A DNA stretch of 29,860 bases, taken from IMG/VR virus record IMGVR_UViG_2703718820_000019; one strand, 5' to 3'. Position numbers and translations under genes: made by a program. Below, one piece after another: positions 6,975 through 22,805 of this stretch (position 1 is its first letter; each line of letters starts with the position of its first letter). Under the pieces are notes generated by a model. It was not told the DNA's origin. It made no database searches and worked only from the letters and a program-made list of their open reading frames with translations. This DNA is from a virus (lineage: Duplodnaviria; Heunggongvirae; Uroviricota; Caudoviricetes).

Positions 6975-8009
6975 TCAGCCGTTGTCAGTGTCCAGTGAGT
7001 AGTTTTTAAAGCGGATGACCTCCTGACCGAGCCAGCCGTTTATCTCGCGGATCCTGTCCTGTAACGGGATAAGCTCATTGCGGACAAAGACCTTTGCCAC
7101 TTTCTCAATATCACCCAGCGACCCGACGTTCTCCGGCTTGCCGCCCATCAACTGAAAGGGGATGCGGTGCGCGTCCAGCAGGTCTGCGGCGCTGGCTTTT
7201 TTGATATTAAAAAAATCGTCCTTCGTTGCCACTTCACTGAGCGGGATAATTTTAATGCCGTCGGCTTTCCCCTGCGGGGCATAGAGAAACAGATTTTTAA
7301 AGTTGTTGCGGCCTTTCGACTTGACCATGTTTTCGCGAAGCATTTCGATATCGTTGCGATCCTGCACGGCATCGGTGACGTACATGATGTATCCGGCATG
7401 TGCGCCGTTTTCGTAATACTTGCGGCGGAACAGCGTGGCCGACTCATTCAGCCAGGCAGAATTAAGGGCGCTGAGATATTCCGGCAGGCCGTACAGCTCC
7501 TGATTAATATCCGGCTCCAGCAGGTGAAACACGGAGCCGGGCGCGAAGGCTGTCGGCTCGTTGAAGGACGGCACCCACCAGTAAACATCCTCCTCCACGC
7601 CACGGCGGGTATATTTTGCCGGTGAGGTTTCCAGTCTGATGACCTTACCGGTGGTGCTGTAACGCTTTTCCAGAAACGCATTACCGAACACCAGAAAATC
7701 CAGCACAAAGCGGCTGAAATCCTGCTGGGAAAGCCACGGGTGCGGAATAAACGTTGAAGCCAGAATATTACGTTTGACGTAAATCGGTGAGCTGTGATGT
7801 ACGGCAGCACGCAGGCTTTTTGCCAGACCGGTAAAGCTGACCGGTGGCTCATACCATCTGCCGTTACTGATGCACTCGACGTAATCCAGAATGTCACGGC
7901 GGTCGAGTACCGGCACCGGTTCACCAAAGGTGAATGCCTCCATTTTCGGGGCGCTGGCGGTCATTTTTTTTGCCGCAGGTTGCGGTGTTTTCCCTTTTTT
8001 CTTGCTCAT
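6975..8009 (-). CDS. Q: Portal protein (capsid portal vertex)
   Basis: 344 aa, the P2 gpQ length; sequence pattern consistent with P2 portal. Start ATG overlaps the P stop (ATGA on minus strand). Confidence 0.95.
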   Translation of the reverse strand: MSKKKGKTPQPAAKKMTASAPKMEAFTFGEPVPVLDRRDILDYVECISNGRWYEPPVSFTGLAKSLRAAVHHSSPIYVKRNILASTFIPHPWLSQQDFSRFVLDFLVFGNAFLEKRYSTTGKVIRLETSPAKYTRRGVEEDVYWWVPSFNEPTAFAPGSVFHLLEPDINQELYGLPEYLSALNSAWLNESATLFRRKYYENGAHAGYIMYVTDAVQDRNDIEMLRENMVKSKGRNNFKNLFLYAPQGKADGIKIIPLSEVATKDDFFNIKKASAADLLDAHRIPFQLMGGKPENVGSLGDIEKVAKVFVRNELIPLQDRIREINGWLGQEVIRFKNYSLDTDNG

Positions 8010-9781
8010 CAGTAAAACTCCAGAATGGTGGATGTCAGCGGGGTGCTGATACCGGCGGTGAGTGGCTCATTTAACAGGGCGTGCATGGTCGCCCAGGCGA
8101 GGTCGGCGTGGCTGGCCTCCTCGCTGCGGCTGGCCTCATAGGTGGCGCTGCGTCCGCTGCTGGTCATGGTCTTGCGGATAGCCATAAACGAGCTGGTGAT
8201 GTCGGTGGCGCTGACGTCATATTCCAGACAGCCACGGCGGATGACGTCTTTTGCCTTGAGCACCATTGCGGTTTTCATTTCCGGCGTGTAGCGGATATCG
8301 CGCGCGGCGGGATAGAACGAGCGCACGAGCTGGAACACGCCGACACCGAGTCCGGTGGCATCAATACCGATGTATTCGACGTTGTATTTTTCGGTGAGTT
8401 TGCGGATGGATTCTGCCTGGGTGGCAAAGTCCATGCCTTTCCACTGGTGACGCTCAAGTATTCTGAATTTGCCACCGGCCACCACCGGCGGTGCCAGCAC
8501 CACGCATCCGGCGCTGTCGCCACGGTGTGACGGGTCGTAACCAATCCATACCGGTCGGGAGCCGAACGGATTGGCGGCAAACGGCGCATAGTCTTCCCAT
8601 TCTTCCAGCGTGTCGACCATGCAGCGTTGCAGCTCCTCGAACGGGAACACCGATGCCTTGTCGTCAACAAATTCACACATGAACAGGTTTTTAAAATCGT
8701 CGGCGCTGTTTTCGCGTTTAAGCTGCTCAATGTCGAACAATGTGCAGCCGCCTTTCAGGGCGTCCTCAATGGTGACAATCTGCCGCCACTGGCCGTCCGC
8801 ACAGAGAAGCCCACCGGCAAGGGCGTTATGACTGACGTCGATTTCCACGCGTTCGGCGGCGCTGGCGCGTCCCCGGTTAAACAGTTCACCGGACCAGAAC
8901 GGGTAGGCGTCGTGCGCCAGCGTGGACGGGGTGGAGAAATAGGTCGAGCGCAGGTGACTCTGTGAGGCCATACCTGATGCCACCTTACGCAGTACCTGAA
9001 AATTCGGGATCCAGAAAATCTCGTCGACGTACAGGTCGCCGTTATGGCTCTGCGCGGTGTTGGAGTTGGTGCCGAGAAAAATCAGTTTTGCGCCGTTATT
9101 GCCCAGGACAATCGGGTCACCGGTCAGGTCAACGTCAACCAGACGGGCAAAGGCGATGATGTATTCACGGAACACATACGCCTGCGTTTTACTGGCCGAC
9201 AGAAAAATCTGGTTATGGCCGGTTTTCAGGGCGCGCAGCAGCGCCTCGCGGGAAAAATAAAACGTCGCGCCAATCTGGCGGGATTTCAGGATATCGCGGA
9301 TGCGGTGCTCAAGCCCGGCGCGATACCAGTGCAACTGATATTCGAAAGACTGCTCAAAGAAAATCTGCTCCAGCTTTTCGATAGCCTCGTCACTGAAAAA
9401 ATTCTTTTTCGGTTTGCGCCGCCCGCCTTTGTTGCGGTTAGCGATGTTCGGATTAAGGTCTGCCTCGTTGCCGGTCTGGCTGTAGCGGTTTACCCGTGCC
9501 AGTCGTTCAATCTGGCGTCCGAGCAGGTCAATTTCCTTGAAGTCACCGCCGGTTTTCTGCGGTTTGATGATGAGCTGGGTCAGCCGCGCTTCCAGACTCA
9601 TTTCGACACGGCTGATGGGGGCAACGCTGTCCCAGCCGTCGCGCTGTTTCCAGCTCTGCACCGTCGGGCGTTTCATCTGCAACATGGCGGCAATCTGCGG
9701 CACGGAAAACCCCTGCCAGTACAGCAGCGCCGCCTGACGACGCGGGTCGTGTAAAAGAGTGGTGTCTGTGGTGATGGTCAT
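8009..9781 (-). CDS. P: Terminase large (ATPase) subunit
   Basis: From the ATG at 9781 (MTITTDTTLLHDPRRQAALLYWQGF...) gives 590 aa, matching P2 gpP as I remember it. The listed ORF extends to 9811, an upstream in-frame start I consider less likely. Confidence 0.93.
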   Translation of the reverse strand: MTITTDTTLLHDPRRQAALLYWQGFSVPQIAAMLQMKRPTVQSWKQRDGWDSVAPISRVEMSLEARLTQLIIKPQKTGGDFKEIDLLGRQIERLARVNRYSQTGNEADLNPNIANRNKGGRRKPKKNFFSDEAIEKLEQIFFEQSFEYQLHWYRAGLEHRIRDILKSRQIGATFYFSREALLRALKTGHNQIFLSASKTQAYVFREYIIAFARLVDVDLTGDPIVLGNNGAKLIFLGTNSNTAQSHNGDLYVDEIFWIPNFQVLRKVASGMASQSHLRSTYFSTPSTLAHDAYPFWSGELFNRGRASAAERVEIDVSHNALAGGLLCADGQWRQIVTIEDALKGGCTLFDIEQLKRENSADDFKNLFMCEFVDDKASVFPFEELQRCMVDTLEEWEDYAPFAANPFGSRPVWIGYDPSHRGDSAGCVVLAPPVVAGGKFRILERHQWKGMDFATQAESIRKLTEKYNVEYIGIDATGLGVGVFQLVRSFYPAARDIRYTPEMKTAMVLKAKDVIRRGCLEYDVSATDITSSFMAIRKTMTSSGRSATYEASRSEEASHADLAWATMHALLNEPLTAGISTPLTSTILEFY

Positions 9782-9954
9782 GAATACCTCGCCGTGATGA
9801 ATACACGGCAAGGCTACTGAGTCGCGCCCCGCGATTCGCTAAGGTGCTGTTGTGTCAGTGATAAGCCATCCGGGACTGATGGCGGAGGATGCGCATCGTC
9901 GGGAAACTGATGCCGACATGTGACTCCTCTAATCACTATTCAGGACTCCTGACA

Positions 9955-10809
9955 ATGGCAAAAAAAGTCTCAAAATTCTTTCGTATCGGCGTTGAGGGTG
10001 ACACCTGTGACGGGCGTGTCATCAGTGCGCAGGATATTCAGGAAATGGCTGAAACCTTTGACCCGCGCGTCTATGGTTGCCGCATTAACCTGGAACATCT
10101 GCGCGGCATCCTGCCTGACGGTATTTTTAAACGTTATGGCGATGTGGTTGAACTGAAGGCCGAAAAGATTGATGACGATTCGGCGCTGAAAGGCAAATGG
10201 GCGCTGTTTGCGAAAATCACCCCGACCGATGACCTTATCGCGATGAACAAGGCCGCGCAGAAGGTCTACACCTCAATGGAAATTCAGCCGAACTTTGCCA
10301 ACACCGGCAAATGTTATCTGGTGGGGCTGGCCGTCACCGATGACCCGGCAAGCCTCGGCACGGAATATCTGGAATTCTGCCGCACGGCAAAACACAACCC
10401 CCTGAACCGCTTCAAATTAAGCCCTGAAAACCTGATTTCAGTGGCAACGCCTGTTGAGCTGGAATTTGAAGACCTGCCTGAAACCGTGTTCACCGCCCTG
10501 ACCGAAAAGGTGAAATCCATTTTTGGCCGCAAACAGGCCAGCGATGATGCCCGTCTGAATGACGTGCATGAAGCGGTGACCGCTGTTGCTGAACATGTGC
10601 AGGAAAAACTGAGCGCCACTGAGCAGCGCCTCGCTGAGATGGAAACCGCCTTTTCTGCACTTAAGCAGGAGGTGACTGACAGGGCGGATGAAACCAGCCA
10701 GGCATTCAGCCGCCTGAAAAACAGTCTCGACCACACCGAAAGTCTGACCCAGCAGCGCCGCAGCAAGGCCACCGGCGGTGGCGGTGACGCCCTGATGACG
10801 AACTGCTGA
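9955..10809 (+). CDS. O: Capsid scaffolding protein
   Basis: From the ATG at 9955 (MAKKVSKFFRIGVEGDTCDGRV...) gives 284 aa, the P2 gpO length; divergent from P as in P2. The listed ORF starts earlier at 9889. Confidence 0.93.
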   Translation: MAKKVSKFFRIGVEGDTCDGRVISAQDIQEMAETFDPRVYGCRINLEHLRGILPDGIFKRYGDVVELKAEKIDDDSALKGKWALFAKITPTDDLIAMNKAAQKVYTSMEIQPNFANTGKCYLVGLAVTDDPASLGTEYLEFCRTAKHNPLNRFKLSPENLISVATPVELEFEDLPETVFTALTEKVKSIFGRKQASDDARLNDVHEAVTAVAEHVQEKLSATEQRLAEMETAFSALKQEVTDRADETSQAFSRLKNSLDHTESLTQQRRSKATGGGGDALMTNC

Positions 10810-10867
10810 CCGGCGTCAGTCAGTCCGGGAAAACCTTCACGATTAACCCTTAATTTCAGGAAAAACT

Positions 10868-11941
10868 ATGCGCCAGGAAACCCGCTTTAAATTTAATGCC
10901 TACCTGTCCCGTGTTGCCGAACTGAACGGCATTGACGCCGGTGATGTGTCGAAAAAATTCACCGTTGAACCGTCGGTCACCCAGACCCTGATGAACACCA
11001 TGCAGGAGTCCTCTGATTTTCTGACCCGCATCAACATTGTGCCGGTCAGCGAAATGAAAGGGGAAAAAATTGGTATTGGTGTCACCGGCTCCATCGCCAG
11101 CACCAGCGACACCGCCGGTGGCACCGAGCGTCAGCCGAAGGACTTCTCGAAGCTGGCGTCAAACAAGTACGAATGCGACCAGATTAACTTCGATTTTTAT
11201 ATCCGCTACAAAACGCTTGACCTGTGGGCGCGTTATCAGGATTTCCAGCTCCGTGTCCGTAACGCCATTATCAAACGCCAGTCCCTTGATTTAATCATGG
11301 CCGGTTTTAACGGCGTGAGGCGTGCCGAAACCTCTGACCGCAGCAGTAATCCGATGCTACAGGATGTGGCGGTCGGCTGGCTGCAGAAATACCGCAATGA
11401 AGCACCGGCGCGCGTGATGAGCAAGGTCACTGACGAGGAAGGGCACACCACCTCTGAGGTTATCCGCGTGGGTAAGGGCGGTGATTATGCCAGCCTTGAC
11501 GCACTGGTGATGGATGCGACCAACAACCTGATTGAGCCGTGGTATCAGGAAGACCCTGACCTTGTGGTGATTGTGGGACGTCAGCTACTGGCGGACAAGT
11601 ATTTTCCCATCGTCAACAAGGAGCAGGACAACAGCGAAATGCTGGCCGCTGACGTCATCATCAGCCAGAAACGCATCGGTAACCTGCCGGCGGTACGCGT
11701 CCCGTACTTCCCGGCGGATGCGATGCTCATCACAAAGCTGGAAAACCTGTCCATCTACTACATGGATGACAGCCATCGCCGCGTGATTGTGGAAAACCCG
11801 AAACTCGACCGCGTGGAGAACTACGAGTCAATGAACATTGATTACGTGGTGGAGGACTACGCCGCCGGTTGTCTGGTGGAAAAAATTAAGGTCGGTGATT
11901 TCTCCACACTGGCTAAAGCGACCGCAGAGCCGGGAGCGTAA
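10868..11941 (+). CDS. N: Major capsid protein
   Basis: 357 aa, the P2 gpN length, in the conserved position. Confidence 0.95.
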   Translation: MRQETRFKFNAYLSRVAELNGIDAGDVSKKFTVEPSVTQTLMNTMQESSDFLTRINIVPVSEMKGEKIGIGVTGSIASTSDTAGGTERQPKDFSKLASNKYECDQINFDFYIRYKTLDLWARYQDFQLRVRNAIIKRQSLDLIMAGFNGVRRAETSDRSSNPMLQDVAVGWLQKYRNEAPARVMSKVTDEEGHTTSEVIRVGKGGDYASLDALVMDATNNLIEPWYQEDPDLVVIVGRQLLADKYFPIVNKEQDNSEMLAADVIISQKRIGNLPAVRVPYFPADAMLITKLENLSIYYMDDSHRRVIVENPKLDRVENYESMNIDYVVEDYAAGCLVEKIKVGDFSTLAKATAEPGA

Positions 11942-17205: not shown

Positions 17206-18114
17206 ATGCCGATTATCGACCTGAACCAGCTACCCGCACCGGATGTGGTCGAGGAGCTGGACTTTGAAACCATTCTTGCCGAACGCAAGGCGACACTGAT
17301 TTCCCTTTACCCGGAAGACCAGCAGGAGGCGGTCGCCCGTACCCTGACGCTGGAATCCGAGCCTCTCGTCAAACTGCTGGAGGAAAATGCGTATCGCGAG
17401 CTTATCTGGCGTCAGCGTGTGAATGAGGCTGCACGGGCGGTGATGCTGGCCTGTGCAGCCGGTAATGACCTTGATGTGATTGGTGCCAATTACAACACCA
17501 CGCGCCTGACTATCACCCCGGCAGATGATTCGACTATCCCGCCGACACCGGCAGTGATGGAGTCTGACACCGATTATCGTCTGCGTATTCAGCAGGCGTT
17601 TGAAGGCTTAAGCGTCGCCGGGTCGGTGGGAGCCTATCAGTATCATGGTCGCAGTGCCGACGGGCGTGTCGCGGATATCTCTGTCACCAGTCCGTCTCCG
17701 GCCTGTGTCACCATCTCTGTGCTGTCACGTGAAAATAACGGTGTGGCATCTGAAGACCTGCTGGCGGTGGTGCGCAACGTCCTGAATGGCGAGGACGTCA
17801 GACCGGTGGCCGACCGTGTGACCGTGCAGTCTGCCGCCATCGTTGAATACCAGATAAATGCCACGCTTTACCTTTACCCTGGCCCCGAAAGCGAACCCAT
17901 TCGCGCTGCCGCCGTGAAAAAACTGGAAGCGTATATCACGGCACAGCACCGGCTGGGGCGCGACATCCGACTGTCTGCCATTTATGCCGCTTTGCATGTG
18001 GAGGGCGTGCAGCGTGTCGAGCTGGCCGCACCACTGGCCGACATCGTGCTCAACAGTACGCAGGCGTCTTTCTGTACCGAATACCGCGTCGTGACCGGAG
18101 GCTCGGATGAGTGA
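17206..18114 (+). CDS. J: Baseplate protein J
   Basis: 302 aa, the P2 gpJ length; conserved position. Confidence 0.92.
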   Translation: MPIIDLNQLPAPDVVEELDFETILAERKATLISLYPEDQQEAVARTLTLESEPLVKLLEENAYRELIWRQRVNEAARAVMLACAAGNDLDVIGANYNTTRLTITPADDSTIPPTPAVMESDTDYRLRIQQAFEGLSVAGSVGAYQYHGRSADGRVADISVTSPSPACVTISVLSRENNGVASEDLLAVVRNVLNGEDVRPVADRVTVQSAAIVEYQINATLYLYPGPESEPIRAAAVKKLEAYITAQHRLGRDIRLSAIYAALHVEGVQRVELAAPLADIVLNSTQASFCTEYRVVTGGSDE

Positions 18115-18718
18115 TTCGCGCCTGCTGCCGACCGGCTCATCACCACTTGAAGTCGCCGCCGCAAAAGCCTGTGCGGAAATTGAAAAAACGCCGGTCAGTA
18201 TTCGTGAGCTGTGGAACCCGGATACCTGCCCGGCAAATCTGCTGCCGTGGCTGGCGTGGTCATTTTCGGTCGACAGGTGGGATGATAAGTGGCCGGAAGC
18301 GACAAAACGCGCTGTTATCCGCGATGCGTATTTCATTCACTGCCATAAGGGCACTATTGGTGCGATTCGCCGTGTGGTGGAGCCGCTCGGCTATCTGATT
18401 GAGGTGAGGGAGTGGTGGCAGCTCAACGAGGAGCCGGGGACGTTCCGTATCGTTGTCGGCGTGCTTGAGCAGGGTATTACCGAGGAAATGTATCAGGAGC
18501 TGGAGCGCCTCGTTGCTGATGCAAAACCGGCAAGCCGCCATCTGACGGGACTGGCTATCAGTTTAAGTACAACCGGCAACATTTTTGCCGGTGCGGGATG
18601 CTATCACGGTGACGCCCTGACGGTTTATCCCTACACTCCGGAGGCCATTATTGTCGGAGGGGATTATTTCCCGGCCTCGGCCATTCATTTAATTGATAAC
18701 CTGAGAGTAAACGCATGA
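18107..18718 (+). CDS. I: Baseplate protein I (tail-fibre attachment)
   Basis: 203 aa; the N-terminal part matches P2 gpI as I remember it (MSDSRLLPTGSSPLEVAAAKACAEIE...); the C-terminus is longer than P2's 176 aa. Confidence 0.9.
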   Translation: MSDSRLLPTGSSPLEVAAAKACAEIEKTPVSIRELWNPDTCPANLLPWLAWSFSVDRWDDKWPEATKRAVIRDAYFIHCHKGTIGAIRRVVEPLGYLIEVREWWQLNEEPGTFRIVVGVLEQGITEEMYQELERLVADAKPASRHLTGLAISLSTTGNIFAGAGCYHGDALTVYPYTPEAIIVGGDYFPASAIHLIDNLRVNA

Positions 18719-20514
18719 CAGTGAAATACTACGCCATTCTGACTAATCAGGGCGCAGCACGGCTGGCTAACGCGACGATGCTCGGCAGTAAGCTGAATCT
18801 GACGCAAATGGCCGTTGGTGATGCGAATGGTGTCTTGCCGACACCAGACCCGGCACAGACAAAACTGATTAACCAGAAACGCATCGCGCCGCTGAATCTT
18901 CTGAGTGTTGACCCGAACAACCAGAGCCAGATTATTGCGGAGCAAATCATCCCTGAGAACGAGGGTGGATTCTGGATCCGTGAGATTGGGCTTTATGATG
19001 ATGAAGGCGTACTCATTGCGGTGGCGAACTGCCCGGAAACGTACAAACCGCAGTTGCAGGAAGGCAGCGGTCGTACCCAGACTATCCGCATGATTCTGGT
19101 TGTCACGAATACCGAAGCCATCACGCTGAAAATCGACCCGTCGGTGGTACTGGCGACCCGTAAATACGTGGATGATGAAGTCCTGGAATTAAGGCTGTAT
19201 GTGGATGACCAGATGAGAAACCACATTGCTGCACAGGATCCTCATACCCAGTATGCACAGAAACATAATCCGACATTTACCGGAGAACCAAAAGCGCCGA
19301 CGCCTGCCGCAGGAAATAACACCACGCGGATTGCGACCACTGCGTTTGTTCAGGCCGCTATTACCGCTCTGATTAACGGTGCGCCAGCCACGCTGGACAC
19401 ACTGAAAGAAATTGCCGCAGCCATTAACAATGACCCGAAATTCAGCACCACCATTAACAATGCGCTGGCACTGAAAGCGCCGCTGTCGAGTCCCGCACTT
19501 ACCGGAACGCCAACAGCACCTACTGCGGCACAGTCGGTCAACAATACACAGATTGCCACCACGGCTTTTGTGAAATCAGCAATTGCGGCAATGGTGGGTT
19601 CTGCCCCTGCGGCACTGGATACACTGAATGAACTGGCGGCGGCGCTGGGGAATGACCCTAACTTTTCAACAACAGTGCTTAATGCACTGGCAGGCAAACA
19701 ACCGCTGGACAATACGCTTACTAATTTGAGTGGAAAGGATGTTGCTGGTCTTCTCGCATACCTTGGTTTGGCTAATTACGCAGACAAAGCAAGTCTGGCG
19801 AATCAGGAGTTTTCTGGTCCCGTATCATCTAAAGACTGCGTTACCGCAACATCGGCAGATGGGGTAACCCGCAAAGTATCGCTTAATGCCAGTACGGGTT
19901 TGAAGATAGTTATTTATGATGGCGGAACTTACAAGGGGGCAATAAACATCCCGGCAAAAGACGGGACAATGGCACTTGTATCTGATTTGGCTAATTTTGC
20001 TGATAAATTGAGTGCTTCTGAGCAATATTTTAAAGGACCTGTTTCATCCGGGGATGGGCTCATAGCAAAATATGGCACCGCAAAAATAATTCTGTCAGCC
20101 CAAAACGGTCAGAGAATTGTTGTTTATACAAACGACACTTACCGTGGAGCTATTAATATTCCACTTCGTGACGGAACTATGGCGCTCCTGGATGATGTTA
20201 CTAATGTTAGCGCAACGCTGCTGGGTATATCTCAGTCATGGCAGAACGTGAAAGCCAGCCGTAGTGCCGGGGTTACGTATACCAACTCAACAGGCAGGCC
20301 CATTGCAGTTTCAATCGCCGGAATAATGGCAACACGTCAGAATGGAGTTCAGTTGTCACTTGCCGTTAATGGCACAGAGGCTTCAAGTTTTGCCGTGACT
20401 GACAGCTCGTTTGACATCAGGGGTAACGTATTTGCGATTGTGCCACCAGGAGCAACTTACAAACTTACAGCAAATAACATTAATTCTATTTTGACCTGGT
20501 CGGAGCTTCGCTAA
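18715..20514 (+). CDS. H: Tail fibre protein, chimeric: P2-H-like N-terminus with a divergent AT-rich distal (receptor-binding) region
   Basis: 599 aa (P2 gpH is 669 aa). The N-terminal ~200 aa are P2-H-like; the region from about 19700 onward drops in GC content and contains tandem protein repeats. Confidence 0.9.
   Translation: MTVKYYAILTNQGAARLANATMLGSKLNLTQMAVGDANGVLPTPDPAQTKLINQKRIAPLNLLSVDPNNQSQIIAEQIIPENEGGFWIREIGLYDDEGVLIAVANCPETYKPQLQEGSGRTQTIRMILVVTNTEAITLKIDPSVVLATRKYVDDEVLELRLYVDDQMRNHIAAQDPHTQYAQKHNPTFTGEPKAPTPAAGNNTTRIATTAFVQAAITALINGAPATLDTLKEIAAAINNDPKFSTTINNALALKAPLSSPALTGTPTAPTAAQSVNNTQIATTAFVKSAIAAMVGSAPAALDTLNELAAALGNDPNFSTTVLNALAGKQPLDNTLTNLSGKDVAGLLAYLGLANYADKASLANQEFSGPVSSKDCVTATSADGVTRKVSLNASTGLKIVIYDGGTYKGAINIPAKDGTMALVSDLANFADKLSASEQYFKGPVSSGDGLIAKYGTAKIILSAQNGQRIVVYTNDTYRGAINIPLRDGTMALLDDVTNVSATLLGISQSWQNVKASRSAGVTYTNSTGRPIAVSIAGIMATRQNGVQLSLAVNGTEASSFAVTDSSFDIRGNVFAIVPPGATYKLTANNINSILTWSELR
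19315..19740 (+). repeat. Tandem ~75-codon repeats within H (NNTxIATTAFV...APAxLDTLxExAAAxxNDPxFSTTxxNALAxK), two copies
   Basis: Copy 1 starts at 19315, copy 2 at 19540 (period 225 nt); the repeat is visible in the translation. Confidence 0.7.
19768..20205 (+). repeat. Tandem 73-codon repeats in the H distal domain (LANxADK...GPVSS...IVxYxxxTYxGAINIPxxDGTMAL), two copies
   Basis: Copy 1 starts at 19768 (LANYADKA...), copy 2 at 19987 (LANFADKL...); period 219 nt, about 45-50% amino-acid identity, in the AT-rich part of H. Confidence 0.7.
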
Positions 20515-20891
20515 TGAATACGGTAATCAAAGAGCAAAAATTCTTTAAGGACTCGGCCGGTGTGATTTTTTGCATCGACATCATGGAAATGAATGCTGAG
20601 TCATGGGGTGAAGAAGTACAGGCCGGATGGCAGGAAATTAGTGCCGATGAAGCGCTATTAATTGCTAATCCACCGCCTACAGAGGAACAGCTATTTGAAC
20701 AGGTTAGGGCGCAGAAACAGGCCCTGATTTCCGAGGCGACTGCAATTATAGATCCACTTAAGGATGCACTGGATGGTGGCTATATCGACGATGCAGACAA
20801 ACCAAGACTGACTGAATGGCAAAAGTACCGCTATGAGGTGACGAAAGTTGATCCGGGAAAACCTGTGTGGCCACCGAAGCCTACAGAATAG
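20514..20891 (+). CDS. G: Tail fibre assembly chaperone (Tfa-like)
   Basis: 125 aa, overlapping the H stop (TAATG); acidic, ending ...PVWPPKPTE, typical of Tfa-family chaperones. Shorter than P2 gpG (175 aa). Confidence 0.8.
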   Translation: MNTVIKEQKFFKDSAGVIFCIDIMEMNAESWGEEVQAGWQEISADEALLIANPPPTEEQLFEQVRAQKQALISEATAIIDPLKDALDGGYIDDADKPRLTEWQKYRYEVTKVDPGKPVWPPKPTE

Positions 20892-20961
20892 GAACGTTTA
20901 AGAAAATGCAGAGATTACGGCTAACTGGCATCATCTCCGGTTTTTATTCAGGGGATCCATC

Positions 20962-21555
20962 ATGCTTATTGGCTATGTCCGCGTATCAACAAATGACCAG
21001 AACACGGAATTGCAGCGTAACGCGCTGGAGTGCGCAGGATGTGAGCTGATTTTTGAGGACAAAATCAGCGGCACGAAGTCCGACAGACCGGGACTGAAAA
21101 AACTGCTCAGGACATTATCGGAGGGGGATACACTGGTAGTCTGGAAGCTGGACCGGCTGGGGCGTAGTATGCGGCATCTGGTCATTCTGGTTGAGGAGCT
21201 GCGCGAACGCGGCATTAATTTTCGCAGCCTGACGGATGCCATTGATACCAGCACGCCGATGGGGCGTTTTTTCTTTCATGTGATGGGTGCCCTGGCTGAA
21301 ATGGAGCGAGAACTCATTGTCGAGCGGACACGCGCCGGACTGGAAGCGGCCAGAGCTAAAGGTCGTATTGGTGGCAGACGTCCGAAACTCACCGCGAGTG
21401 AGTGGGAGCAGGCCGGGCGGTTGCTGGCTGCAGGGGAATCACGTCAACGCGTGGCACTGATTTTTGATATTGGCCTGTCCACGCTCTATAAAAAATTCCC
21501 CGCCTCAGTGACAAAAAATAAATTGTGTCATCCCTTAGCCAACCGGGACAAATAG
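20962..21555 (+). CDS. pin: Pin/Gin/Hin-family serine DNA invertase
   Basis: 197 aa; N-terminal catalytic motif GYVRVSTNDQ (serine nucleophile), resolvase/invertase core and C-terminal HTH. Closely resembles e14 Pin as I remember it. Sits at the P2 Z/fun position between G and FI. Confidence 0.9.
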   Translation: MLIGYVRVSTNDQNTELQRNALECAGCELIFEDKISGTKSDRPGLKKLLRTLSEGDTLVVWKLDRLGRSMRHLVILVEELRERGINFRSLTDAIDTSTPMGRFFFHVMGALAEMERELIVERTRAGLEAARAKGRIGGRRPKLTASEWEQAGRLLAAGESRQRVALIFDIGLSTLYKKFPASVTKNKLCHPLANRDK

Positions 21556-21614
21556 CCTGACATCTCCGGCACAACTGAAAATATCACTCACCCATTAACC
21601 ACGGAGTTAAACGG

Positions 21615-22805
21615 ATGAGTGACTATCATCACGGCGTGCAGGTGCTGGAGATTAACGACGGCACCCGCGTCATTTCCACCGTATCCACTGCCATTGTCGG
21701 CATGGTCTGCACGGCCAGCGATGCGGATGCGGAAACCTTCCCCCTCAATAAACCGGTGCTGATTACCAATGTGCAGAGCGCAATTGCAAAGGCCGGTAAA
21801 AAAGGCACGCTGGCGGCATCGTTGCAGGCCATCGCCGACCAGTCAAAACCGGTCACCGTTGTCGTGCGTGTGGAAGACGGCACCGGCGACGACGAGGAAA
21901 CGAAACTCGCGCAGACCGTTTCCAATATCATCGGCACCACTGACGAAAACGGTCAGTACACCGGACTGAAAGCCCTGCTGGCGGCGGAGTCGGTAACCGG
22001 TGTTAAACCGCGTATTCTTGGTGTGCCGGGGCTGGACACCAAAGAGGTGGCTGTTGCACTGGCATCAGTCTGTCAGAAGCTGCGCGCTTTCGGATATATC
22101 AGCGCATGGGGCTGTAAAACCATTTCCGAGGTGAAAGCCTACCGCCAGAATTTCAGCCAGCGTGAGCTGATGGTCATCTGGCCGGATTTCCTCGCATGGG
22201 ATACGGTCACCAGTACCACCGCCACCGCGTATGCCACCGCCCGTGCGCTGGGTCTGCGTGCCAAAATCGACCAGGAGCAGGGCTGGCATAAAACGCTGTC
22301 CAACGTCGGGGTAAACGGTGTTACCGGCATCAGCGCATCTGTATTCTGGGATTTGCAGGAGTCCGGCACCGATGCTGACCTGCTTAACGAGTCAGGCGTC
22401 ACTACGCTGATTCGCCGCGACGGTTTCCGCTTCTGGGGTAACCGTACCTGCTCTGATGACCCGCTGTTCCTCTTTGAAAACTACACCCGCACCGCGCAGG
22501 TGCTGGCCGACACGATGGCTGAGGCGCACATGTGGGCGGTGGACAAGCCCATCACCGCAACGCTGATTCGCGACATCGTTGACGGCATCAATGCCAAATT
22601 CCGTGAGCTGAAAACAAACGGCTATATCGTGGATGCGACCTGCTGGTTCAGCGAAGAATCCAACGATGCGGAAACCCTCAAGGCCGGAAAACTGTATATC
22701 GACTATGACTATACCCCGGTGCCTCCTCTCGAAAACCTGACCCTGCGCCAGCGTATTACCGATAAATACCTGGCAAATCTGGTCACCTCGGTTAACAGCA
22801 ATTAA
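21615..22805 (+). CDS. FI: Tail sheath protein
   Basis: 396 aa, the P2 gpFI length; conserved position. Confidence 0.95.
   Translation: MSDYHHGVQVLEINDGTRVISTVSTAIVGMVCTASDADAETFPLNKPVLITNVQSAIAKAGKKGTLAASLQAIADQSKPVTVVVRVEDGTGDDEETKLAQTVSNIIGTTDENGQYTGLKALLAAESVTGVKPRILGVPGLDTKEVAVALASVCQKLRAFGYISAWGCKTISEVKAYRQNFSQRELMVIWPDFLAWDTVTSTTATAYATARALGLRAKIDQEQGWHKTLSNVGVNGVTGISASVFWDLQESGTDADLLNESGVTTLIRRDGFRFWGNRTCSDDPLFLFENYTRTAQVLADTMAEAHMWAVDKPITATLIRDIVDGINAKFRELKTNGYIVDATCWFSEESNDAETLKAGKLYIDYDYTPVPPLENLTLRQRITDKYLANLVTSVNSN

Follow-up and report, generated by a model that had tools for sequence, protein, structure and literature searches.

The tips of tail fibres determine which bacteria are attacked by a phage or a tailocin, and the exchange of fibre modules at invertase sites has been known in principle since the early 1990s. 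Haggard-Ljungquist and co-workers in 1992 (for P2 H and G) and Sandmeier in 1994 are said to have inferred that distal fibre modules are exchanged at the crossover sites of invertases. The closest described systems form the Din family (Mu G/Gin, P1 C/Cin, e14 P/Pin, the P2-like loci of PMC4272514 and NC_041848). In these, the gene of a Gin-type invertase is a neighbour of the fibre genes. The fibre gene itself contains a 26-bp crossover site that marks the border of its constant and variable parts and reads ..LGL.. in translation; a dedicated Tfa gene comes after the variable part, and an outer half-site is kept beside the invertase. P2-like prophages with working invertible fibre segments have been reported (PMC4272514). 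These Din-type features are found around the tail fibre gene H of the virus record IMGVR_UViG_2703718820_000019, a nearly complete P2-like (Peduovirus) prophage of 29,860 nucleotides; the whole of this stretch is referred to as the window, and its first 12 kb are ~98% identical to known members of the group. Here, a P2-like proximal fibre part is joined at such a site to a foreign distal part and its chaperone gene, and a single cassette is present. The features on which this comparison rests are the following.

18715-20514, + strand: tail fibre gene H, an open reading frame (ORF) of 599 residues with a PF12571 match, chimeric, with a constant part of P2 type and a variable part of foreign origin.
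18715-19764, + strand: proximal, constant part of H (residues 1-350), of P2 type by nucleotide identity to relatives, GC content 0.525.
19751-19776, + strand: left crossover site, gixL-like, TTCTCGCATACC TT GGTTTGGCTAAT, score 14.5, the top-scoring 26-mer.
19765-20514, + strand: variable (distal) part of H, designated Hv, residues 351-599, GC content 0.456, 100% match in three E. coli genomes.
20514-20891, + strand: chaperone gene G (Tfa), 125 residues, PF02413, its start overlapping the H stop by one base.
20881-20906, + strand: right junction, CTACAGAATAGG AA CGTTTAAGAAAA, composed of the end of G (TAG at 20889-20891) and a relic outer half-site.
20962-21555, + strand: serine DNA invertase of the Gin/Cin/Pin/Hin type, 197 residues, apparently intact.

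The locus was compared with two close relatives, Escherichia phage S164 and NC_041848, the O157:H43 T22 prophage deposited as ‘P2’. Nucleotide identity to both is 97.5–97.9% from upstream of H to position 19764/19771, is then lost, and is back at 20892/20895 with 95–98%. The intervening 1123 nucleotides are 100% identical (1123/1123) in 3 of 5426 complete E. coli genomes and were unmatched in 50,697 phage records and 72,556 plasmids, the distant search mode included. In the three genomes the cassette resides in a prophage beside dusA with a Mu-like baseplate (GP46, baseplate J/gp47, YmfQ). There, the 249 residues of Hv are fused in frame to a StfP-like N-terminus of 97 residues to give a fibre of 346 residues, which is followed by the identical 125-residue Tfa and then by a different recombinase of 187 residues. 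In RefSeq, the fibre gene of this prophage (L003 5703-6743 in JX21CE8, NZ_CP178438; likewise in the other two loci, L017 and L018) is given as an stfP pseudogene ‘missing C-terminus’ of which only 5703-6011 is covered; the ORF is actually intact, with 346 codons including Hv, and the entry is an annotation artefact of the chimeric fibre.

A first-pass annotation of this DNA had proposed that the receptor-binding module and its chaperone were replaced horizontally, and this can now be seen directly, in the sharp loss of homology and in the 100% identical cassette of a Mu-like prophage. It had placed the distal boundary at about residue 340, close to the true break in homology and composition at 19764-19771 (residue 350/351), and had correctly given the sizes of H and G as 599 and 125 residues versus 669 and 175 in P2. 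A full-length alignment of H and G with their P2 counterparts and no step in GC content, which it had named as the contrary outcome, is not what is seen. H aligns significantly with P2 H over residues 1–332 only (P2 H 1–329, 50% amino acid identity), and residues 351–599 gave no credible or significant alignment with P2 H. Likewise, only the last 62 residues of G align with P2 G (113–174), at 40% identity. Both the invertase gene, which starts 70 nucleotides past G, and the crossover site at the break had gone unmentioned in that annotation.

Crossover sites were sought with a scan for 12-2-12 sites of the Din type, based on the Din half-site consensus. The scan recovered Mu gixL and gixR at the annotated boundaries of the G segment, and a perfect inverted pair in NC_041848. 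In the window, 19751-19776 is the only 26-mer scoring ≥13. It coincides with the break in GC content and homology and encodes ..AYLGLA..; gixL of Mu lies within S in the same form and frame, encoding ..NLGLQ... The outer half of the left site is that of the P2-like relatives, while its inner half is that of the cassette in the Mu-like prophage. An exact inverted copy of 19747-19771 adjoins the invertase in NC_041848, whereas the window contains none.

At the right junction, the left half is the end of G, which is common to the Mu-like prophage, and the junction aligns position for position with the right site of S164, TTCTGCTAAACG AA CGTTTATGAAAA. Identity to the Mu-like prophage stops at 20895 and identity to S164 begins at 20892. 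The intervals available for the crossovers are 19760-19771 and 20892-20895, and each includes the central dinucleotide (TT at the left site, AA at the right junction), in the inverted relation that is normal for an invertible segment. Scored over all 26 positions, the right junction reaches 11, a value that 31 other 26-mers in the window equal or exceed, and its outer half-site (20895-20906) is one of ten half-sites that score ≥8 there. An intact second inverted site was not found at the far end of the segment; only this outer half-site remains. The main argument for the right end as a recombination point is a recurrent border, since tfa ends in ..ATAGG AA in 6/6 loci of the family examined, each time with a different half-site-like flank following.

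Two further candidates were considered and rejected. The stretch 20925-20955 (..CCGGTTTTTATTCAGG..) does not score as a second site and is a flank shared upstream of the invertase start in all P2-like relatives. The short repeats I10 and D3, linking 19762-19797 to 20793-20810 within G, contain no full site and were judged to be due to chance because both stretches encode ..ADK..L. In NC_041848 (L002, 5928-5939), the functional right site is followed, after 4 bp, by a relic outer half-site CGTTTATGAAAA. Its sequence is that of the outer half in the S164 site and in the right junction of the window. This relic suggests, on sequence grounds, a repeated turnover of cassettes at the position of the right site.

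The cassette belongs to a rare family. Full-length relatives of Hv fall into ~18 clusters among 5.8 billion (5.8e9) proteins, and five representatives reach E ≤ 1e-30 among 1.84 billion proteins. IMG/VR contains only two Hv loci, and a peptide scan of 185,579 GTDB species representatives yielded no confirmed relative. The exact 599-residue H occurs in three public contigs only, with identical gene layout in all. Family members follow seven or more unrelated N-terminal regions, the fusion falling in every case at ..LG/L(A/T)(N/Y)YADK (at the slash), and are found on at least four baseplate types (P2-like, Mu-like, Pam3/Wedge1-type and others), with an invertase present or not. Three loci (L008, L012 and L014) carry a cassette of the family with no invertase nearby and have kept a half-site-like flank. 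The Tfa genes of the family encode 124–129 residues, with the start codon overlapping the stop codon of the fibre gene. One relative (P0018), which aligns only from Hv residue 66 on, appears from its alignment to be devoid of most of the first of the 73-residue repeat units described below. Another, an Hv homologue of Citrobacter braakii (P0009), bears the NCBI name ‘PQQ-binding-like beta-propeller repeat protein’.

Taken together, the best explanation, to which we assign a probability of roughly 0.7, is that an invertase-equipped P2-like locus had the content between its sites swapped for a rare Hv-G cassette and is now in a fixed state. In loci of this kind, a Gin-type crossover site divides H into a constant part and an exchangeable cassette of Hv and G. 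In this phage, all content between both crossover sites has been replaced by one rare Hv-G cassette, of a kind otherwise carried on Mu-like and other myovirus baseplates. Judged from the positions of the breakpoints, the swap most likely proceeded by recombination at the central dinucleotide of each of the two sites; prophages sharing a host cell could have been the partners, or an ancestor could have undergone a deletion at a quasi-site. What is left is one good site, a hybrid right site, no oppositely oriented cassette and an intact invertase, so that the fibre is most likely fixed in one state.

Catalysis by the invertase has to be weighed against general or illegitimate recombination, in which the site core (..ACCTTGGTTTGG..) would have served merely as a homology patch on the left and GAAC as microhomology on the right. 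The left interval does consist of 12 nucleotides of common sequence, and fibre mosaicism at conserved motifs is common where invertases are lacking, as in the three loci mentioned above. However, those loci still have a half-site-like flank, and the right interval of only 4 nucleotides hits the centre of the position-homologous S164 site. Moreover, a homology of 4–5 nucleotides is unusable for RecA-type recombination, and the break lies at ..ATAGG AA in 6/6 family members, with different half-site-like sequences outside. We therefore consider an event independent of the invertase unlikely, though still deserving some weight.

A bolder extension of the preferred reading is that the tfa end (..CAGNATAGG AA C.TTT..) is itself a working asymmetric site, and that Hv-G is mobilised by recombinases between co-resident prophages with unrelated tail modules. 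This is a doubtful proposition at present. If true, it would amount to a natural recombinase-mediated cassette exchange of receptor-binding modules by Gin-type invertases, and the single-cassette state might permit an ON/OFF flip of the fibre tip. A composite locus from the Logan collection (L010 5001-11044, SRR25912174_16) would then be a by-product of events between prophages. On the left of its invertase gene (6582-7151) it carries a Mu-like fibre with a single Hv-G cassette, and on the right an opposite-strand P2-like fibre locus that comprises H (9221-11044), a convergent pair of Tfa genes and a fragment of Hv. By its gene order it looks like two prophage fibre loci joined at an invertase site.

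As to the present state of the segment, S164 and NC_041848 keep the full set, namely H-G followed by G' and Hv' on the opposite strand and then the invertase. In the window, no ORF for an alternative Hv'/Tfa' cassette on the opposite strand exists at 20891-20962 or anywhere in 18700-21600, and no second Tfa or Hv ORF was found in the window as a whole. Having a single cassette and only one intact site, the locus cannot alternate between two fibres. With one good full site and no alternative cassette in the window, the segment is most likely what is left of an invertible fibre segment, locked with a single cassette, in which the invertase would be orphaned but intact.

It is conceivable, but very unlikely, that the segment can still invert between the left site and the degenerate right site, turning Hv-G ON and OFF, the OFF state truncating H to 353 residues. 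The central dinucleotides are compatible (TT left, AA right), the invertase is intact, and the layout of a single cassette plus invertase occurs on three different phage backgrounds. Cin reportedly uses quasi-sites chosen mainly by their central dinucleotide (Iida and Hiestand-Nauer, in the 1980s). Against this, the whole right site scores like 31 random 26-mers, and a flip would end H with ..GLLAYL-PIL-stop and silence G, with no evident benefit to the phage. The cassette is also in the expressed (ON) orientation in 8/8 examined loci with an invertase, some of which are not independent of each other. If flipped, the inverted junctions would read TTCTCGCATACCTT followed by CCTATTCTGTAGG, and GCCAAACCAA followed by CGTTTAAGAAAA. 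The pattern GCGTAATTAGCCAAACCAAS, covering either junction orientation, had 0 matches in metagenome, genome and viral collections, and so provides no information on inversion.

The absence of any horizontal event, with H and G as diverged P2 orthologues and a low GC content owing to amino acid composition, can be dismissed as virtually without probability: resemblance to P2 is indeed present in the N-terminal 330 residues of H and in the C-terminal third of G, but the 98% similarity to very close relatives vanishes abruptly, an unrelated prophage type carries the cassette with 100% identity, and Hv has no significant alignment with P2 H.

The distal two-thirds of H contain tandem repeats, which are described here together with the tip.

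19279-19713, + strand: repeat set 1, two 74-codon units (residues 189–259 and 263–333), z = 27, GC content 0.536, in the constant part.
19771-20199, + strand: repeat set 2, two 73-codon units (residues 353–425 and 426–495), z = 33, in the AT-rich part.
20212-20511, + strand: tip domain, H residues 500–599, modelled as a C1q/TNF-like jelly-roll, the presumed receptor-binding head.

Both sets, first noticed in the first-pass annotation, are real at the protein level. A blastp comparison of H against itself gave the trivial full-length match only, so that segments had to be aligned with each other and with shuffled sequences. For residues 189–259 versus 263–333 the local score was 218 (shuffles 35.8 ± 6.7), and for 353–425 versus 426–495 it was 179 (shuffles 25.2 ± 4.7). 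At the DNA level the copies are too diverged, and Tandem Repeats Finder reported no array for either set; of set 1, only a 33-nucleotide remnant (D2) with a spacing of 222 nucleotides can be traced. The annotation had assigned both sets to an AT-rich distal region. This is right for set 2, but set 1 has a GC content of 0.536 and lies in the stretch that is 97–98% P2-like; it begins near 19279 and not at 19315. One copy of the set-1 unit is present in P2 H itself (residues 246–329).

GC content is 0.525 in H 18715-19764, 0.456 in Hv (19765-20514) and 0.468 in G, compared with 0.536 for the window. The 1123-nucleotide cassette is the sole low-GC island among the structural genes. Of all stretches of this length, 11% are equally low, and all others of them lie at the two ends of the window. 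These further islands at the prophage ends, 68-3560 (the integrase/early side) and 27554-29485 (after gene D), have a GC content equal to or below that of the fibre cassette, with a minimum of 0.421 near 27849.

No Pfam model matches the repeats or the tip of Hv, only sub-threshold noise being returned (e.g. PROPPIN at E 0.059 on one repeat). Similarly, NCBIfam contains nothing for H or G, and no solved structure matches Hv by sequence. The AlphaFold2 model of Hv has a mean predicted local distance difference test score (pLDDT) of 72.6. Residues 500–599 are confidently modelled as a beta-sandwich with a pLDDT of 83–97, and the matches of the tip model include tail fibres predicted for phages of Achromobacter, Edwardsiella and Acinetobacter. 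The tip family has 4679 representatives at E ≤ 1e-3; among the 150 matches listed, nearly all match the tip domain only, usually at the C-terminus. PHROGs of this family carry only the labels function-unknown or ‘tail fiber protein’. Each 73-residue unit is predicted as a meander of four beta-strands, at low confidence (pLDDT ~50–75), and a blade-like arrangement of these units in the trimer is conceivable from the model.

G matches PF02413 (Caudo_TAP) with E 2.5e-15 and 57.2 bits (cut-off 22.1), and its residues 57–123 align with residues 108–174 of Mu TfaU (5YVQ; E 1.8e-10). The model (pLDDT 90.5) shows a small alpha/beta N-domain (1–51) and a helical hairpin (57–110). Across the Hv family, the N-part of Tfa is 61–84% identical, including members with an exchanged C-part (21/65 identical). 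G thus has the profile match, the conserved C-terminal region, the gene position and the co-variation with the tip of a Caudo_TAP protein. Tfa proteins are modular, with an N-domain that binds the fibre tip and a conserved C-domain that drives trimerisation (PMC9608196). G agrees with this scheme, and its short length (125 residues) is explained by a smaller tip-specific N-domain.

According to the preferred model, the P2-like N-terminal part would anchor the fibre to the baseplate. It would be followed by the two 74-residue units, the two beta-rich 73-residue units and a trimeric C1q/TNF-like head that binds a receptor other than that of P2. G would bind this tip via its short cassette-specific N-domain and promote trimerisation via its helical C-domain, as do Mu Tfa and Pam3 gp25. 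P2 binds lipopolysaccharide (PMC9594776). Since P2 has an unrelated tip domain, a receptor and host range different from P2's is a reasonable inference from the sequence.

The invertase has the Pfam domains Resolvase (E 3e-52) and HTH_7 and matches phrog_125, DNA invertase, with E 5.6e-101. Its residues 1–182 align with Mu Gin (3UJ3; E 6.6e-95) at ~78% identity, counted by hand, and Ser9 is present. The gene is 72.6% identical to Mu gin DNA over positions 2–542, and the invertase region is ~98% identical in nucleotides to that of S164. Gin-type invertases cross-complement. The enzyme could act in trans on segments of other prophages in the host, or on the degenerate right site.

The flanking genes are those of a P2-like tail module.

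18107-18718: gpI homologue (Tail_P2_I), directly upstream of H.
21615-22805: sheath gene FI, downstream of the invertase gene.

H has the features of a P2-type fibre gene, as PF12571 (Phage_tail_fib) matches residues 1–150 (E 4e-62) and the gene comes directly after the gpI homologue.

How does the locus compare with the known systems? In P2 itself (NC_001895), the gene order I-H-G, the N-terminal collar-fibre domain, one 74-residue unit and the C-domain of Tfa are the same. All that is distal to ..LGL is unrelated, and H of the window is 70 residues shorter. In place of the second 74-residue unit, P2 H has short ..SATNSTSETLAATPKAV.. repeats. G of the window is ~50 N-terminal residues shorter than P2 G and has a different N-domain, and P2 has fun(Z) between G and FI and no invertase. 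Despite the latter, P2 H (L004 13857-13882) contains a gix-like relic, TTATCGAATATC TC GGTTTACAGGAA, which encodes ..IEYLGLQE.. at residue 378; the junction motif is the same as in Mu S and in H of the window.

The StfP-type fibre of the Mu-like prophage in JX21CE8 shares the identical Hv and G and the layout of a single cassette followed by an invertase. It differs in its constant part of 97 residues, its Mu-like baseplate, its invertase of 187 residues and its outer half-site CATTTTTTATAA. At the protein level, Mu TfaU (5YVQ) and Pam3 gp25 resemble G in the conserved C-terminal helical region and in a variable N-domain that follows the tip, the N-domain of G being much shorter (~51 residues). 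The TNF-like domain of Pam3 gp24 (PMC9608196) has its counterpart in the TNF/C1q-like jelly-roll predicted for the fibre tip described here, but the top fold matches of the tip do not include the Pam3 fibre.

From the Din family, finally, the locus is set apart by having one cassette, no opposite Hv'/Tfa' and no intact second site. It would thereby be an example of an invertible segment that has decayed to one locked cassette and kept its invertase. Its natural cut sites are defined at single-base resolution, at ..LG/L.. in the crossover site and directly past the tfa stop codon, and constitute an empirically validated fusion point for the engineering of P2-type particles. The new part offered is a tip family of two 73-residue repeats and a predicted C1q-like head with a 125-residue chaperone. 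P2 fibres can be retargeted (PMC9594776). As module exchange at invertase sites is long established, the value of the locus lies not in a new concept but in a clean case and a reusable module. It is an unusually clean case of a known route of host change, particular in its rare, uncharacterised tip family and in its single-cassette state.

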